From Escherichia phage vB_Eco_NicPhage, in the sequence record OY726582: a stretch of DNA of 64,000 nt; one strand, written 5' to 3'. The notes beneath the pieces were generated by a model, which was not told the DNA's origin, ran no database searches, and worked only from the letters and a program-made list of their open reading frames with translations. Position 1 is the stretch's first letter; every line of letters starts with the position of its first letter. Below, piece by piece: positions 11,608 through 17,749 of this stretch. The position numbers were made by a program, and so were the translations under genes.

Positions 11608-11833
11608 CTCGGTCCCATGATTTGGCCATTAATTCGGACATAAATTCTTCAATGCGCGTTTCTTTAGATGGACTTTCACTATTAGAGACCGCAAGTTTGT
11701 AATCTGCAATAGGACAGAACATATCAAGGTCCATATTAAGGTCGTCTTTGATTTTTTCTTCTGACACATCTTTATCGTATGTGTACAGATAACTATCACA
11801 TGATTCTGATTTAATGTAAATTGCTATACTCAT
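11597..11833 (-). CDS. hypothetical acidic protein
   Basis: Track ORF 11597..11848; start at MSIAIY with SD AGGAAT overlapping upstream stop. Confidence 0.4.
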   Translation of the reverse strand: MSIAIYIKSESCDSYLYTYDKDVSEEKIKDDLNMDLDMFCPIADYKLAVSNSESPSKETRIEEFMSELMAKSWDRDDE

Positions 11834-12321
11834 CTCAAATTCCTGCATTCGGTAATAAAACGTTCAACTTCATTATTCTTGGCTTTTATCTTGTCTTTAT
11901 GTTCTTGTAAACTACTTTTAATAAGATTAATAATGATAGCGACAGTGCCGCCGCCAATGATGCCACCAATAATACTTACGATAGTAGATGCTAATAAGAT
12001 AGCAATAATATCAACAAAACCGAAAGAACTCACCTTAGTACTAAAAAACCATACCGATGGTACAAATATAATCCATCCTGCTATCCATTGGCACTTATTG
12101 AAAAACTTTTCAAGATCAGCTTGAGTTGTTCGTATTACTTCATCGATAGGTTGATAACCGTTAATGTATCTGTTCACGATAATACCTGCTGGCTGGTCGA
12201 TTTTAAATTCTTGGCAAATACGTTTAACTAAGTAGGATGGACATCCTGTCCAATCTATTGAATAGTATGAAATACCTTTATTGCCGTCGTCTATATTAGA
12301 CCAATATGTTTTGTTAATCAT
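11830..12321 (-). CDS. membrane protein with C-terminal ERFITECR tail
   Basis: 163 aa; TM helices (WIAGWIIFVPSVWFF, IIAILLASTIVSIIGGIIGG); C-terminal motif shared with four neighbouring genes. Confidence 0.5.
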   Translation of the reverse strand: MINKTYWSNIDDGNKGISYYSIDWTGCPSYLVKRICQEFKIDQPAGIIVNRYINGYQPIDEVIRTTQADLEKFFNKCQWIAGWIIFVPSVWFFSTKVSSFGFVDIIAILLASTIVSIIGGIIGGGTVAIIINLIKSSLQEHKDKIKAKNNEVERFITECRNLR

Positions 12322-13007
12322 TACCAGCCTTCCATAGGGAATTCCAGATAAACTTGAGCGTTGACACGAATTTCATTGGTAATCTTTTTAACTCGGTCTG
12401 TATTACGAGATACACGTCCGAACCAACGCCATCCATTACTAATTGCACGAGAACCAGTGTGCCATGTTTGCCAATCAAACTGAAGAAGAGTACGGTCTGG
12501 AGCTTCCCATTTCTCTAGTTCACCTTTTTCAATTTTTTCGAGGACTTCTTTGTGCCACTGGCGATAGATAAGTTCGCCATCAGGAATCTGACTGAACTCT
12601 GCAGTTCCTGTTGCAAAATGAGTAGGACACACGTCAGCGTTAACAAGACCAAGAATATGTTCAGAATGGTAACGAGGGTTGTCATAGTCAGGTTGTCCTG
12701 CAGTAATAAAGTGTTGACCAACTGGAATATCAGGGCGAGGAACATCGTCATGGTGGTATCCAGGGATAGCAGGATACCACCCAGGCATCAGCATATGAAC
12801 CCGAGAATCAAATACAACATGTTGATTAGTCCAATCAATTGGGAGATTGGCAATAAAGCTACGAGTGATTGAGCCACCATTATCCCAAGCAAAACCCAAA
12901 TCACAATTAAAGAACATTGGTTCATTTTTGATTCGGTCATTTTGTACGTTATGTGCAAAACTACCAACTGCACGAGCTTGACTATTAAACACTTTAGAAC
13001 TATTCAT
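12321..13007 (-). CDS. hypothetical protein (His/Asp-rich, possible metal-binding)
   Basis: 228 aa ORF; SD GAGGAAAA; no confident family assignment. Confidence 0.5.
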   Translation of the reverse strand: MNSSKVFNSQARAVGSFAHNVQNDRIKNEPMFFNCDLGFAWDNGGSITRSFIANLPIDWTNQHVVFDSRVHMLMPGWYPAIPGYHHDDVPRPDIPVGQHFITAGQPDYDNPRYHSEHILGLVNADVCPTHFATGTAEFSQIPDGELIYRQWHKEVLEKIEKGELEKWEAPDRTLLQFDWQTWHTGSRAISNGWRWFGRVSRNTDRVKKITNEIRVNAQVYLEFPMEGW

Positions 13008-13008
13008 A

Positions 13009-13314
13009 TTATTTTCCTCGACATTCTTTAATGAAATTTTCTAGATTGGTAGATTCAATAGCTTTTTTACGAGCTTCTGCGTGTTCTTCTTCAGACAATT
13101 TACATTTATAATTGACCCAGACGTTATGGTCGAAACTAGTCGTGGCATATAATAACAATGCTCCAACGAATAGCAAAAACGGCGATAAGAATACAAAACC
13201 AGGAACACCATCCATACTGTAAGCCTTTTGTAATACTGCAACAGAAAGAGCTGCGTAAAAAAGTGATACAAATATTGTTAAAAGACCAATTCGGTTGGTT
13301 TCGCCTAATTTCAT
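13009..13314 (-). CDS. membrane protein with C-terminal ENFIKECR tail
   Basis: 101 aa; two TM helices; SD GAGGAGAA; preceded by early promoter cassette. Confidence 0.55.
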   Translation of the reverse strand: MKLGETNRIGLLTIFVSLFYAALSVAVLQKAYSMDGVPGFVFLSPFLLFVGALLLYATTSFDHNVWVNYKCKLSEEEHAEARKKAIESTNLENFIKECRGK

Positions 13315-13334
13315 AATATTCTCCTCATGTTTTA

Positions 13335-13378
13335 ATAGGACTACTATAACATAGTCCTATCAGTTTGTACACTTATTT
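13335..13378 (-). promoter_or_regulatory. early promoter cassette (dyad ATAGGACTAC...ATAGTCCTAT)
   Basis: Same cassette as at 3366, 14897, 21671, 22002. Confidence 0.5.
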
Positions 13379-13573
13379 TGACATTTCTTCGATGTCACGA
13401 CGATACCCATCACGAACTTCACGAAGAGCTTCAAGGCCACACATAGGCTCGATACCAGTAATGTGAACTTGATTAATCTGATACTCTACATCTTCTAACT
13501 GAGCGAAAACATAACGACGTTCTGCTGCACAACCAGGTTTAGCTTTACCGAAACGTTTATTCAAAGTAGTCAT
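13373..13573 (-). CDS. hypothetical protein
   Basis: Track ORF 13373..13591; ATG at 13573 (MTTLNKRFG) has SD GGAGAT and a promoter cassette directly upstream. Confidence 0.45.
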   Translation of the reverse strand: MTTLNKRFGKAKPGCAAERRYVFAQLEDVEYQINQVHITGIEPMCGLEALREVRDGYRRDIEEMSK

Positions 13574-13597
13574 TTTTATATCTCCATTCACTCATTT

Positions 13598-13640
13598 GTT
13601 TTGATAGGTCTATAGTATCAACAACTACAGACCTTGTAAA
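13598..13640 (-). promoter_or_regulatory. early promoter cassette (GATAGGTCTATAGTATCA variant)
   Basis: GTTTAC -35 and TACTATAGACC -10 region directly upstream of 13373..13573. Confidence 0.55.
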
Positions 13641-13653
13641 CTGTTTTGTGAAA

Positions 13654-14685
13654 TTATTTGAAAGGTTTTACCATATGAAAGTTTTGTTTGAAACGCTTGA
13701 CGTAATCGTCGTGTCCTAAGCTTTGGTACATACTTACTACTTTGCTATAATTTTCCCAAGCGAACTCACGGAACCATCCTGATGTGATTGATGTACAGAC
13801 CTTTTCAAGGGCCATCATAAAACTATCACGTGGATGGATTTCAAAGTTATTAGGAATCTGAGAACGTTCTAACGCTAGTACACATGATTCTTCGTATACG
13901 CCGGCCAATTTGACCATTTCTGGTAATGATTCGAACTTCTCGCGTGAGGTCATGACTTCAGAACCATCTTTCATATAAAATGTATACGCTGGACGGTCTG
14001 TTAGTGCAATGGCTTCGTGAATAGTATCATGATCGTATGTGTAGATGTCATCTTTAAAGAATGCGCTTTTAGAAGTGTCAAGAACCGGGTGAGCATAATT
14101 CAAAGTTTCTTTCTGGCGTTTCAGCATAATTTCAGTAAGTTCATCGTTCAGTGTAACACCTTTACCACGAAGATACTGAATATGGTTCATAGTCTTTAAA
14201 AAGAATGGATTATTTTTCTTGAAACGATGAGACATCTTAATTGCAAGACATATCTCAGGAGTTGCCCAGTAAAACCCGTTCAAACGGTCTTTAGTCAAAT
14301 TTTTCTTGGCGTATTTTAAAAGGTCATAAGAAGACGTGAAATCTTCAGGAGTGAGTTCACCGACTAATTCACGGACATTAGTGATTGCCGGAACAATATA
14401 TGCTTCAAAATGAGTTTCGCGTCCATTATGGAAGCATTTGAAAACTTGGACATCAGGGTTATCTTGGTGAACATATACACCCATCATTTGATTTTTGAAT
14501 GCATTCCAAGAACCTTGGTCCGCAATAAAGTCCCAATCACTATTTTTAATAGCGCTAGAATCAATAAGACCGTGATAGTGAAGTGCACGAGAACCAATAA
14601 CTAACATCATAATATTTTCCTCGGAGTAATTCATTAACTTAAATTTCACGACATGCGATATTATATTCATCCCAGAGGTCATCAT
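13654..14685 (-). CDS. nucleotidyltransferase-fold-like protein
   Basis: 343 aa; motif VIGSRALHYHGLIDSSAIKNSDWDF resembles Pol-beta NTase GS...D.D; weak. Confidence 0.45.
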   Translation of the reverse strand: MMTSGMNIISHVVKFKLMNYSEENIMMLVIGSRALHYHGLIDSSAIKNSDWDFIADQGSWNAFKNQMMGVYVHQDNPDVQVFKCFHNGRETHFEAYIVPAITNVRELVGELTPEDFTSSYDLLKYAKKNLTKDRLNGFYWATPEICLAIKMSHRFKKNNPFFLKTMNHIQYLRGKGVTLNDELTEIMLKRQKETLNYAHPVLDTSKSAFFKDDIYTYDHDTIHEAIALTDRPAYTFYMKDGSEVMTSREKFESLPEMVKLAGVYEESCVLALERSQIPNNFEIHPRDSFMMALEKVCTSITSGWFREFAWENYSKVVSMYQSLGHDDYVKRFKQNFHMVKPFK

Positions 14686-14890
14686 GTGAAGCCTCTACCA
14701 ATGGAACGATTGTACCGTTTATGTCTTCATTATAAGGGCAAATTGTACAGTGCGCATCTTCGAATCGGATGCCTTTGTGTTCAGATTTTTTATAACGCAT
14801 ATCGAATATCTTTGCAAACTTTTCACGAGTAATGGTTTTAGCAACCACTTTAGTTCCGATACTTTCGTAATAAATCATTGTGGACTCCAT
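14639..14890 (-). CDS. hypothetical protein (Cys/His-containing)
   Basis: 83 aa ORF immediately downstream of early promoter cassette. Confidence 0.4.
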   Translation of the reverse strand: MESTMIYYESIGTKVVAKTITREKFAKIFDMRYKKSEHKGIRFEDAHCTICPYNEDINGTIVPLVEASHDDLWDEYNIACREI

Positions 14891-14896
14891 TTGTTT

Positions 14897-14937
14897 TGAT
14901 AGGACTACTATAACATAGCCCTATCTTGTTGTAAACT
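14897..14937 (-). promoter_or_regulatory. early promoter cassette
   Basis: GTTTAC ... dyad GATAGGACTACTATAACATAGCCCTATC. Confidence 0.55.
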
Positions 14938-14940
14938 GTT

Positions 14941-15138
14941 TTAGCAAGAATAACTAGATGATACCCAGCCTTGAACAGTGATACTATTGTGGGATAATGA
15001 GATCGCGTCCTGGAGATTCAGACCTGCGTTATCTTCAATCCATAATGTAACTTCTTCGCGTTCTTCTGTTGCAATTTGGAACAGGTTTTCCAGAGCAGCT
15101 ACTGCCGTACGTACAGCACAATCTAATTCACGAGACAT
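14941..15138 (-). CDS. small protein, paralog 1 of W-V-S-S-S-x-x-C tail family
   Basis: 65 aa; ends QGWVSSSYSC; ATG with SD GGAAACA. Confidence 0.5.
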   Translation of the reverse strand: MSRELDCAVRTAVAALENLFQIATEEREEVTLWIEDNAGLNLQDAISLSHNSITVQGWVSSSYSC

Positions 15139-15147
15139 ATTGTTTCC

Positions 15148-15420
15148 TTAGCAAGTGTGAGAAGATGCGACCCAACCACCGGTTTCGAGGCTCAGGTTGT
15201 AGTCGTATTGGTAAACGTCAGCCCATTCAGCATAGCCGTTTTTTGCACAACGTTCAAGATCGGCTTTAAGATGTCCGGGTGAATGATAGGTTCCACCCAT
15301 ACCATAAGCTGGGTACAAGTTGAATGTTGTGTTTTGTTTATCAGCAATTTCTTTGGCAGCCTCAATAGCTGCATAGATTTTTGCTACAGCTTCAGCCAGT
15401 TCGGTTTGTTCTTTAGACAT
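15148..15420 (-). CDS. small protein, paralog 2 of W-V-S-S-S-x-x-C tail family
   Basis: 90 aa; ends GGWVASSHTC; SD GGAATCA. Confidence 0.5.
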   Translation of the reverse strand: MSKEQTELAEAVAKIYAAIEAAKEIADKQNTTFNLYPAYGMGGTYHSPGHLKADLERCAKNGYAEWADVYQYDYNLSLETGGWVASSHTC

Positions 15421-15429
15421 AATGATTCC

Positions 15430-15735
15430 TTAGCACAACGCAGAAGACGAAACCCAAGCACCTTCAGTAATAACGTAACCATTACCTTCACGCTTAACAT
15501 CGCCACCATTATTTTCAATTTCATCTTTCATCCACTGGGATACGATTTCACCCTTAGGATAATAAGTACGACCGCTACCATAATCACCTACAGAAAATGA
15601 TACGGCATATTGGTCTGCGATCTTTGTTGCTTCTTCTTCGATACGTTCAGCTTGATTCAGAAGTTTATAAATTGCATCTGAAGCGGATTTGGCATCATTA
15701 AACTCTGGTACTTTAATTTCAATAATCTTACTCAT
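15430..15735 (-). CDS. small protein, paralog 3 of W-V-S-S-S-x-x-C tail family
   Basis: 101 aa; ends GAWVSSSALC; SD AAGGAATG. Confidence 0.5.
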   Translation of the reverse strand: MSKIIEIKVPEFNDAKSASDAIYKLLNQAERIEEEATKIADQYAVSFSVGDYGSGRTYYPKGEIVSQWMKDEIENNGGDVKREGNGYVITEGAWVSSSALC

Positions 15736-16091
15736 TTTCTACATTCCTTAATAAAGTTTTCTATTGTTTCATTTTCACGTCTAGCTAGGAGTTCATTATA
15801 ACTAATCATTTGAGAAGCGTAAACCTTTTTATTTTTCTTGTTATGGTTTATAAAATCGTAGTAAAAATAGACTACAGTACAAAATGATGCGATGGATGCA
15901 AAGGCTTGGGTATACCGTAAGTCTTGCCATTGGTCTGTGAATCCACCAGTGTTCCCTATAAATCCTAACACAACGCCGTCAATAAGAAATCCAACTAATC
16001 CAAAGGCAAATCCCACGCCAATACTTATAATAAAAATTAGAATGTTCTCACCAAGAGAAGGCCATACGGTTAAGAGTTGAGGCTTTTGCAT
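15732..16091 (-). CDS. membrane protein with C-terminal ENFIKECRK tail
   Basis: 119 aa; 2-3 TM helices; SD AAGGAAAT. Confidence 0.5.
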   Translation of the reverse strand: MQKPQLLTVWPSLGENILIFIISIGVGFAFGLVGFLIDGVVLGFIGNTGGFTDQWQDLRYTQAFASIASFCTVVYFYYDFINHNKKNKKVYASQMISYNELLARRENETIENFIKECRK

Positions 16092-16465
16092 CTTATTTCC
16101 TTAACGAATTCCATAGCTTCTTCATATTCATACTTTTTAACAGCTTCATCATACTGAGCTTGGGCTTTTGCGCACTGAACTCTCCATTCTCTTACTCGAG
16201 CTCTGTGATGACGGCCTTGGTGCCAATATCCAATCCAGTTAATAGGCATTAATAAAAACGGTACAATAAGTGGTGCGACGAACATTAATGAAAACGCTGC
16301 ATCAGACGATATAACTTCACTAGAATCTAAAACAGCTCCTATAATCATAAAGATTAAAAATGCTAAAGCTAAAATAGGGCCAAATAATACTTCATTTGGG
16401 ATTAATTTACGCTTGTATTCATACGCCCAGGGCTTACTTGGCATGTATAGGGTTGGCTTTGACAT
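16070..16465 (-). CDS. membrane protein with C-terminal EFVKEIRCK tail
   Basis: Track ORF 16070..16495; start moved to MSKPTLY (SD GGAATGTAGAGAAT); two TM helices. Confidence 0.45.
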   Translation of the reverse strand: MSKPTLYMPSKPWAYEYKRKLIPNEVLFGPILALAFLIFMIIGAVLDSSEVISSDAAFSLMFVAPLIVPFLLMPINWIGYWHQGRHHRARVREWRVQCAKAQAQYDEAVKKYEYEEAMEFVKEIRCKSLNS

Positions 16466-17036
16466 ATTCTCTACATTCCATAATAAATTGCTCAAGGATT
16501 AAATTGTTAGTGAAATTAGGACTAACAACCATAGTTTCATAAAGCGCATCAATAGCACTTAAAGCATCAACTCTTTTAAGCAAAGGCTTGCCTTCATACA
16601 TAGTTTCAGAATCGATGATTAACGTAAAGTAATATTTTTTATTATCGACTAGAACTTCTGTATCGATATAAAACATGTTAGACCTTAAAAGCTTATCTCT
16701 AAAACCATAATAATCTTCAGAGCGTTCGCTGATATATTCCCATTCAGTGTTTAAACAACAAACAGACCATGTAGGAGCAACGAAATCAGTGAATCTAATA
16801 TCATGGTCTGCAACTAGTTTAGCAATAGCTCCGATATCATGAATCATAATACCTGGGGCTAATAAAGATTTTCTGCTATGGCTAGCCGTTTTCTCAGTAG
16901 TCTCATAAGAAGACGACCAGTACCATTTACGTCCGGTTGCAACATATCGTAATGAATCAACTAAAGACGTAGGTGGATTTACCTTATCTCGGAACTCTTC
17001 GAACATTGAGTCAATATCATTATTTTGGTTTCGCAT
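16434..17036 (-). CDS. hypothetical protein with EQFIMECR motif near C-terminus
   Basis: Track ORF begins at TTG 17057; ATG at 17036 (MRNQNNDID) has SD AAAGGAG. Confidence 0.5.
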   Translation of the reverse strand: MRNQNNDIDSMFEEFRDKVNPPTSLVDSLRYVATGRKWYWSSSYETTEKTASHSRKSLLAPGIMIHDIGAIAKLVADHDIRFTDFVAPTWSVCCLNTEWEYISERSEDYYGFRDKLLRSNMFYIDTEVLVDNKKYYFTLIIDSETMYEGKPLLKRVDALSAIDALYETMVVSPNFTNNLILEQFIMECREYVKANPIHAK

Positions 17037-17054
17037 GTTAACTCCTTTATTATC

Positions 17055-17085
17055 CAAAAGGAGGACCGGAGTCCTCCGTATTATT
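17055..17085 (-). terminator. hairpin terminator/attenuator after PspA-like gene
   Basis: Minus strand GGAGGAC-TCCG-GTCCTCC followed by TTTTGG. Confidence 0.5.
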
Positions 17086-17679
17086 TTATTTCAAAGAGTT
17101 AATATATTCTTGTACATCAGCAGAAGTGGTTTCGACGCCGGCTGGAGTGCCATTGAACGTTTCAACACGAGTCAGAGTGTCTTCGATATCAACCTTAGTC
17201 AGTGCAGCGATTTCAATTACATCATCGGCCGTAGAGATACCAAGGGCATTGGCTGCTCGAGTTTCACGAATGTATTCGAGTTTGATTGCCAGGTTCTGAC
17301 GAGCATCGTCAAGTTCAACCACCTTACGAGCAATTTCAATTCGCATAGCGGCATACCCGTCAGCTTTTGTATTAAGTTGTTCGGCAGTTCGACGATACAG
17401 AAGACCAAGCTTAGCATGCATAGTAACATCTTGTCCTTCAGCCAGGAGCTTACGAATTTCAAGTTCCTTAGAAGCGGCTTGCTTGTTCTTTTCATTAACA
17501 AGTTCGCGAATACGTTTTTCTTCATTAATAGATTTAACAGAAGCCGTTTTTAGTTCTTTGATTTGGGTAATCAACTTATCTGCAGCTGCGTTATACTGTT
17601 CTTCGACAGTCAGATTTTTAGCCATAGCAGTACCCAGTTTAGTGCGGATGAATTCAACAAGTTTCTTCAGTGTGTTCAT
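17086..17679 (-). CDS. coiled-coil protein, possibly PspA/IM30-like
   Basis: Track ORF begins at TTG; ATG ([10 protein letters not shown]) with SD AAAGGTAAT; long amphipathic helical sequence; family call weak. Confidence 0.45.
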
Positions 17680-17749
17680 ATTATTACCTTTCAATTGGTG
17701 GTTTATTATCCAACGAGAGCATTATACTCTGCTCTCAAGAGTTTGTAAA

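Follow-up and report, generated by a model that had tools for sequence, protein, structure and literature searches.

A recurrent C-terminal peptide on neighboring proteins encoded downstream of gene e.6 in T4-type phages

The DNA analyzed here (the window) is a stretch of 64,000 nucleotides (nt) from Escherichia phage vB_Eco_NicPhage (sequence record OY726582). Its minus strand carries five neighboring genes whose products end in, or close to, related copies of a short peptide tail, typically E-x-F-I-x-E-C-R. RB69-like Mosigvirus genomes match the window at 97-99% identity, and annotated relatives and T4 give the minus-strand order as e (lysozyme), nudE, a homologue of RB69ORF130c and an e.2-like gene, with e.3, e.4, e.5 and e.6 further on. 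The five tail carriers are the orthologues of T4 e.2, e.3, e.4 and e.5, together with the Mosigvirus-specific ORF101. About 3.4 kb lie between e.3 and the e.2-like gene in Mosigvirus, a segment that T4 does not have. To our knowledge, T4 genes e.2 to e.6 have never been assigned a function. A first-pass annotation of the window had reported the five open reading frames (ORFs) and their tails, all of which are found in the sequence at the reported minus-strand positions. It offered three readings of the repeated ending: a conserved protein tail, a translational-coupling module, or a homology patch that promotes gene shuffling.

Gene e.6 (17086..17679) encodes a conserved helical protein, and in all genomes examined the tail-bearing block lies immediately downstream of it. 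A strong hairpin and then a run of T residues come directly after e.6 (17060..17077), and no promoter comparable to that of e.6 is seen before e.5 in the window; expression of genes e.5 to e.3 may need read-through that starts at the e.6 promoter (17749..17721). The e.5 orthologue (16434..17036, 200 amino acids) is soluble and ends in ...EQFIMECREYVKANPIHAK. Its tail codons, E-Q-F-I-M-E-C-R (16470..16493), are 11 codons before the stop, and the ATG of e.4 is at 16465..16463. The e.4 orthologue (16070..16465, 131 amino acids) ends in a variant tail, ...EFVKEIRCKSLNS, whose codons E-F-V-K-E-I-R-C occupy 16088..16111; the Arg and Cys codons, agA TGc, form the start codon of e.3 (16091..16089). 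The e.3 orthologue (15732..16091, 119 amino acids) ends in ...ENFIKECRK, with tail codons E-N-F-I-K-E-C-R at 15738..15761, a Shine-Dalgarno (SD) sequence AAGGA at 15749..15745, and the next ATG (15735..15733) overlapping the stop codon as ATGA. ORF101 (13009..13314; phrog_9798) ends in ...ENFIKECRGK, with tail codons E-N-F-I-K-E-C-R at 13018..13041, SD GAGGA at 13019..13015 and the next ATG at 13007..13005. The e.2-like gene (11830..12321, 163 amino acids) encodes a putative cytoplasmic N-domain, two hydrophobic segments and the tail ...ERFITECRNLR; the codons E-R-F-I-T-E-C-R are at 11842..11865, SD AGGA is at 11844..11841, and the next ATG (11833..11831) again overlaps the stop as ATGA. Three of the carriers had been described as small membrane proteins, a count that hydropathy corrects to four of five: e.2-like, ORF101, e.3 and e.4 each have two hydrophobic segments, and e.5 has none.

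The e.2-like protein, named e.2 in RB69, belongs to Pfam family PF26896 (Phage_T4_Y06M), which is carried by its 93%-identical cluster representative (P0007) and by more distant homologues; the e.2 family alignment spans residues 1-160. The e.5 protein of the window belongs to Pfam family PF26876; both families are recent, are defined separately and have no assigned function. In tblastn comparisons, e.3, e.4 and e.5 are 35-48% identical to Tequatrovirus proteins over their full length, and the order e.6-e.5-e.4-e.3 is that of T4. Between T4 and the window, e.6 is 88% identical, compared with 35-47% for e.3 and e.5. Pfam and NCBIfam scans of the five carriers gave no match, and PHROGs returned only unannotated families or the generic label 'membrane protein' (phrog_2203). 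Single-sequence searches of solved structures with the e.2-like protein, e.5 and e.6 gave no match. Homologue searches with e.3 and e.5 returned only near-identical clusters, as the word index used misses relatives at 35-45% identity. A search of viral contigs for related loci gave only two. Some GenBank records (JK36, F25, ECML-363) name e.3 or e.4 'sulfurtransferase', a label unsupported by the profile libraries used. In the 98.7%-identical relative mobillu (L001, 1831-2323), the e.2-like gene is annotated as two overlapping coding sequences for membrane proteins, which suggests a frameshift or a sequencing error.

The tail is far more frequent than composition predicts. E.F[IV].EC[RK] has exactly four matches in a six-frame translation of the window, all at most 11 codons from the stop of a real gene. 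For F[IV].[ED]C[RK], four matches are observed in the 64 kb compared with 0.18 expected, and none of 2000 residue shuffles of the window's 143 ORFs reached at least four (mean 0.023). In the complete T4 genome, matches to the same search are limited to e.5, e.3 and a remnant, absent from the annotation, that lies between e.2 and nudE; the e.4 variant is also present. The remnant is a 53-codon frame (T4 record 67472..67651, minus strand, L003) that ends in ...NNFITECRKLK, and the annotated nudE ATG of T4 (67490) is within its GAATGC Glu-Cys codons. T4 e.2 (102 amino acids) looks like a disrupted version of the 150- to 170-residue protein of other genera.

The first-pass annotation had proposed that the junctions be aligned across T4-like genomes, and the motif is retained in every relative examined. 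We scanned the e-to-e.6 region of T4, IME523 (Kanagawavirus), IME08 (Dhakavirus), TH54 (Gaprivervirus), JD18 (Jiaodavirus), Aeromonas phage phiAS4, Margaery (Pseudotevenvirus) and two metagenomic contigs. Ten sequence sets, comprising eight named genera (Mosigvirus, Tequatrovirus, Kanagawavirus, Dhakavirus, Gaprivervirus, Jiaodavirus, Tulanevirus and Pseudotevenvirus) and the two contigs, contain 26 canonical tails of the form [FW][IVL]xxC[RK] and approximately eight degenerate ones, such as FIKEVRN, FIKNVRRK, FITQVRRK and WIKEMK. All are in the block downstream of e.6. Carriers with two hydrophobic segments are e.2, e.3, e.4, ORF101 and JD18 orf98 and orf108. Soluble carriers of the e.5 type come directly after e.6 in all nine genomes with a readable junction, and further soluble carriers are IME523 orf96, IME08 orf119 and JD18 orf102. 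In Margaery, the motif is 25 residues before the stop rather than at the extreme C-terminus. Literature searches on T4 e.2 to e.6 returned nothing. The tail is real and conserved, and we found no description of it, including as a feature common to PF26896, PF26876, e.3 and e.4.

Codon usage within the tail indicates the level at which it is conserved. When 21 copies are aligned on the Phe codon, the first and second codon positions are rich in information and the third is poor, giving a period of three. The first base of the Arg codon is A in 12 copies and C in nine, and the Cys codon is TGT in 10 and TGC in eight. Over the 26 canonical copies, the final basic residue is Arg encoded by AGR (13) or CGN (10), or Lys encoded by AAA (three). 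The identical ENFIKECR of ORF101 and e.3 is encoded with four nucleotide differences, all of them synonymous. When the e.2-like protein is the query in an exhaustive HMMER search, the homologues recovered are 26-35% identical and invariably end in [FW]-I-x-x-C-R-[KR]. I156, C159 and R160 are three of the nine invariant columns in the e.2 family alignment (23-28% identity), and F184, C188, R189 and K193 are four of the eight in that of e.5 (19-24% identity). Because of this codon periodicity, the synonymous variation and the invariant residues in diverged families, the recurrent tail is best read, on present sequence comparisons, as a C-terminal peptide motif under amino-acid selection, rather than as an RNA or recombination module. 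Of the three initial readings, the conserved protein tail is therefore the one that the data support.

The tail codons do overlap the ribosome-binding site (RBS) of the next gene, as the first-pass annotation observed, but its reading of GGAAT(G) as the SD element is only partly correct. The Lys-Glu codons of e.3 and e.4 supply AAGGA as the SD, at distances of 9 and 6 nt, respectively, from the next ATG. For the e.2-like gene and ORF101, the Arg codon and those after it supply AGGA or GAGGA, and the distance to the ATG is 7 nt. The e.5 junction has a weak GGAA alone, 10 nt upstream of the ATG. Thus, at four of the five junctions, an SD-like sequence lies within the upstream gene 6-9 nt before the start, a geometry typical of translational coupling. 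Stop and start codons overlap as ATGA after the e.2-like gene and e.3, are separated by 1 nt after ORF101, and overlap by 22 nt after e.4 and 32 nt after e.5; the Cys codon ranges from overlapping the next ATG to 13 nt upstream of it. Because tail and RBS hold no fixed register and the SD falls on different codons, their overlap looks like mostly a result of tight gene packing, and a coupling module with a fixed GGAAT(G) is not borne out. Generic coupling through ATGA-type overlaps, which are ordinary for T4-type genomes, is plausible. RNA constraint probably shapes the variable positions of the tail, for example as K-E or K-G codons that give AAGGA, and in many e.2 homologues the residue before Cys is Gly (AAAGGA) where that creates the SD of nudE.

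The GAATGY that encodes Glu-Cys contains an ATG. This embedded ATG is the annotated nudE start in T4 and opens the longest ORF78 frame in the window, whereas in e.3 and e.5 it is followed at once by a stop (ATG-TAG). The idea that GAATGY is kept for its embedded ATG is rejected as a general explanation, because T4 e.3 (GATTGC) and IME08 orf119 (TATTGC) lack it, and it leaves the F, I and R of the tail unexplained.

Profile comparisons separate the tail from the bodies that bear it. With small family profiles in hhalign, e.2, ORF101 and e.3 align pairwise over their last 12-20 residues only, whereas e.3 and e.4 align over 38-59 columns. The N-termini of the latter two are also alike (MSKPTL and MQKPQL; common pattern M-x-K/R-P-x-L), and e.3 and e.4 are likely tandem paralogues. 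ORF101 has a weak match in the e.2 PHROG, within the C-terminal half of that profile (positions 79-165, E-value 1e-4). As judged from these alignments, the tail is a discrete common element on bodies that are partly paralogous and partly unrelated. One rearrangement does use tail junctions. TH54 has e.4 and IME08 does not; the two genomes align up to the e.5/e.4 junction and again from the e.4/e.3 junction, and these junctions have 22 nt in common (aaRgaggttcNNaatg). In e.5, a second partial tail copy (FIxECRE, then YVKA or YAKEVQN) is located exactly at the start of e.4. Because IME08 has no e.4 between the two junctions, its e.5 ends in ...EYAKEVQNGTA, a fusion of two tails. The gain or loss of e.4 thus reads as one clear junction-to-junction recombination between tandem paralogues. 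In contrast, the insertion that distinguishes Mosigvirus from T4 is bounded by start codons, not by tails. In phiE142 (L005, 5990-6090) and PTE-Eco05 (L006), e.3 has an internal deletion of approximately 250 bp with an 11-nt filler, and only its last 30 codons, including the tail, are left before the next gene; tail shuffling is ruled out as the origin of this remnant. The homology patch of the first-pass annotation is therefore weakly supported, with the e.4 event in its favor and, against it, rearrangements that avoid the tails and copies that are too divergent at synonymous sites.

If the tail were instead an RNA-level initiation or coupling module, then UUUAUUAAGGAAUGU... would serve as an AU-rich enhancer and SD for the next gene and the peptide would be incidental. 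Such a module would account for the fact that all tails overlap the next start or are 0-13 nt upstream of it, including those of e.4 and e.5, whose stops come 22-32 nt later. It would also fit the F-I-K-E codons, which read UUUAUUAAGGA, the degenerate e.4-type tails that retain F-I-K-E and drop C-R, and the change of Glu to Gly before Cys where the nudE SD is thereby strengthened. However, F, I, C and R stay constant while the SD codon differs between junctions, both AGR and CGN serve for Arg and both TGT and TGC for Cys, and the Margaery motif is 25 residues before the stop. Tight packing is also general in the genome, so RBS overlap is expected of any C-terminal motif, and we consider this explanation doubtful. 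A signal for the prohead protease or for capsid targeting is far less probable still. The gp21 cleavage site is I-x-E, and the N-terminal targeting sequence of T4 internal proteins is MKTYQEFIAE, and an internal-protein-like ORF of the window has an N-terminal start of this kind; F-I-x-E in the tail, followed by C-R, resembles these, and [IV]-x-E is present in most copies. This candidate is rejected because the Glu is variable (G, D, R, Y, S, K or Q), nothing in the targeting sequence corresponds to the invariant C-R, and the motif is C-terminal, on proteins with predicted membrane segments.

Gene history offers two more explanations, neither of which we favor. Under neutral hitch-hiking, a gene duplicated with its upstream RBS carries along the last codons of the preceding gene, and the tails are relics that supply homology for crossing over and have no peptide function. 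The likely duplication of e.3 and e.4, the partial second tail of e.5 and the IME08 breakpoints within 22 nt shared by two junctions are all as this predicts. Relics should decay as amino acids, whereas I, C and R are invariant in homologues that are 20-28% identical and whose synonymous sites are scrambled; moreover, DNA identity between copies is too low to sustain homologous recombination, and the remaining indels of the region do not use tails. These observations make hitch-hiking improbable. Alternatively, all membrane carriers might descend from one ancestor with two membrane segments, of which the tail is the best-preserved part. Their common architecture (two hydrophobic segments, a basic stretch, a helix and the tail), the match of ORF101 to the e.2 PHROG and the extended e.3/e.4 alignment fit such plain paralogy. 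The tail is also present on soluble proteins of other architecture (e.5, IME523 orf96, IME08 orf119 and JD18 orf102), and the e.2, ORF101 and e.3 profiles align over so few residues that a single ancestor seems unlikely as the whole account.

Selection on the peptide itself remains our preferred reading, and it can be extended to a possible function. The selected unit would be hydrophobic-x-x-[F/W]-[I/V]-x-x-C-[R/K], at or near the C-terminus. As we read the sequence, one face of the helix would carry F (position 0) together with the hydrophobic residue at -3 and C at +4. The C-terminal segments of the four membrane carriers contain 7-11 Lys and Arg residues. AlphaFold2 models the e.2-like protein with one continuous helix, residues 102-161, that runs into the tail (predicted local distance difference test score [pLDDT] 70, predicted template modeling score [pTM] 0.30), with no packing of the tail on the N-domain. 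The tail would therefore cap a long cytoplasmic helix on the four small membrane-segment proteins, e.2, ORF101, e.3 and, in degenerate form, e.4, and also the last helix of soluble e.5. The constant position of e.5 directly after e.6 in the nine genomes with a readable junction suggests that the motif may be oldest in the e.5 family, and the tail could have reached the membrane proteins by duplication or recombination that retained the junction with the next gene. With genes packed end to start, tail codons would double as the RBS of the next gene, a by-product that affects only variable positions. The tail could then be a docking or oligomerization helix that joins co-expressed proteins to one common partner at the inner membrane face, most plausibly the adjacent e.6 protein. 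We assign roughly even odds (about 0.5) to this whole explanation, that is, peptide-level selection for a shared docking or oligomerization helix with e.6 as the likeliest partner.

The case for e.6 comes from a faint resemblance to the PspA/Vipp1 proteins. A total of 1101 phage records contain e.6. When nine e.6 proteins are combined in a profile, the top solved-structure matches are Vipp1/IM30, at marginal E-values (0.018-0.08) and colinear over residues 2 to approximately 143. One of the nine homologues matches the Pfam family PspA_IM30 (E-value 4e-4), and hhalign gives a marginal 51% probability for e.6 with Vipp1. In bacteria, proteins of the PspA family typically have small membrane proteins as partners. 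Because e.6 is marginally Vipp1-like and PspA proteins usually have membrane partners, the tail is proposed to dock its carriers to e.6 or to another common partner. The membrane carriers might be PspA-type anchors: they have two hydrophobic segments, K/R-rich tails, a long C-terminal helix in the AlphaFold2 model of the e.2-like protein and adjacency to e.6 in all lineages examined, although the identity of e.6 is itself marginal. A bolder and rather speculative version, which we think unlikely to hold in full, is that the e.6-to-e.2 block is a phage Psp/Vipp1-like membrane-maintenance module, in which an ESCRT-III-superfamily e.6 and soluble e.5 are recruited by changeable two-segment anchors with an F-I-x-x-C-R docking peptide.

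Several observations weigh against docking to e.6, or against purely peptide-level selection. A Pfam scan of the window's own e.6 gave no match, including to PspA_IM30, and the similarity of e.6 to PspA/Vipp1 is below any curated threshold; e.6 is a candidate partner, and naming it is a guess. The cytoplasmic location of the C-terminal segments is predicted from hydropathy and the positive-inside rule only. AlphaFold2 confidence in the e.2-like model is no more than moderate, and the e.5 model, built from a shallow alignment, failed (pLDDT 36) and gives its tail no structural context. Finally, in the e.4 lineage the Cys is lost or displaced (FVKEIRC, FIKEVRN, FIKNVRRK and WIKEMK), yet the SD-bearing F-I-K-E codons are retained, so the F-I-K-E part may be held partly by RNA-level constraint.

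A peptide tag on four or five adjacent proteins across eight named genera would mark one putative functional unit. If a PspA/Vipp1-like e.6 is indeed the partner, T4-type phages carry their own membrane-stress machinery; if no partner exists, the tail is an ordinary family signature. The case also illustrates how peptide and RBS constraints can act on the same codons in a compact genome.

The segment between e.3 and the e.2-like gene has further features. A second recurrent C-terminal tail is found at 14941..15735 (minus strand), in three tandem small soluble ORFs that end in G-x-W-V-S-S-S-x-x-C-stop (...GAWVSSSALC, ...GGWVASSHTC and ...QGWVSSSYSC). Kanagawavirus, Dhakavirus, Gaprivervirus and a metagenome contig have four to five such genes (L011, 2945-4550; L012, 2828-4070; L013, 3564-4825; L015, 1673-3426), and T4 has none. 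They belong to PHROGs 899 and 4882, which have no assigned function, and their Ser run and terminal Cys are unusual. ORF228 (12321..13007) and ORF343 (13654..14685), both on the minus strand, encode well-conserved proteins that are absent from T4. ORF228 always ends in ...VYLEFPMEGW, and ORF343 comprises DUF7277 and DUF7275. Both co-occur with the WVSSSxxC genes in five sequence sets: the window, IME523, IME08, TH54 and contig L015. Three minus-strand intergenic cassettes, at approximately 14940..14890, 13645..13595 and 13371..13320 (upstream of 14890, 13591 and 13314), have a TTTACA/TGTACA-17-TATAGT-type promoter around a hairpin (ataggactatgttatagtagtcctat) and match the published description of promoter-early stem-loops (PeSLs).

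PeSLs are non-coding cassettes of near-identical DNA, located at the boundaries between genes in variable parts of T4-type phage genomes, and they have been proposed to mediate modular gene shuffling in these phages (PMC2839356, PMC4122927). Like PeSLs, the F-I-x-x-C-R tails are short conserved sequences at such boundaries. In contrast to PeSLs, the tails are inside coding sequence, differ at most synonymous sites, are conserved as peptide and have neither promoter nor hairpin, and a single recombination event was found at their junctions. The ATGA-type coupling of phage operons is similar in that the upstream coding sequence contains the SD and its stop overlaps or directly adjoins the following start codon. 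However, such coupling needs no conserved peptide, and it leaves the invariant F, I, C and R, with their variable codons, unexplained. A third comparison is with LiaI-LiaH of Bacillus and PspB/PspC-PspA of enterobacteria, in which small inner-membrane proteins encoded beside a PspA/IM30-like helical protein recruit it to the membrane through a cytoplasmic helix. The tail carriers differ from LiaI and PspC in having no sequence similarity to them, in that several carriers share one tail, and in that e.6 is only marginally Vipp1/PspA-like. Nevertheless, as in the LiaI and PspB/PspC systems, the membrane carriers are small proteins with a predicted cytoplasmic helix, encoded beside a protein, e.6, that is weakly PspA-like.

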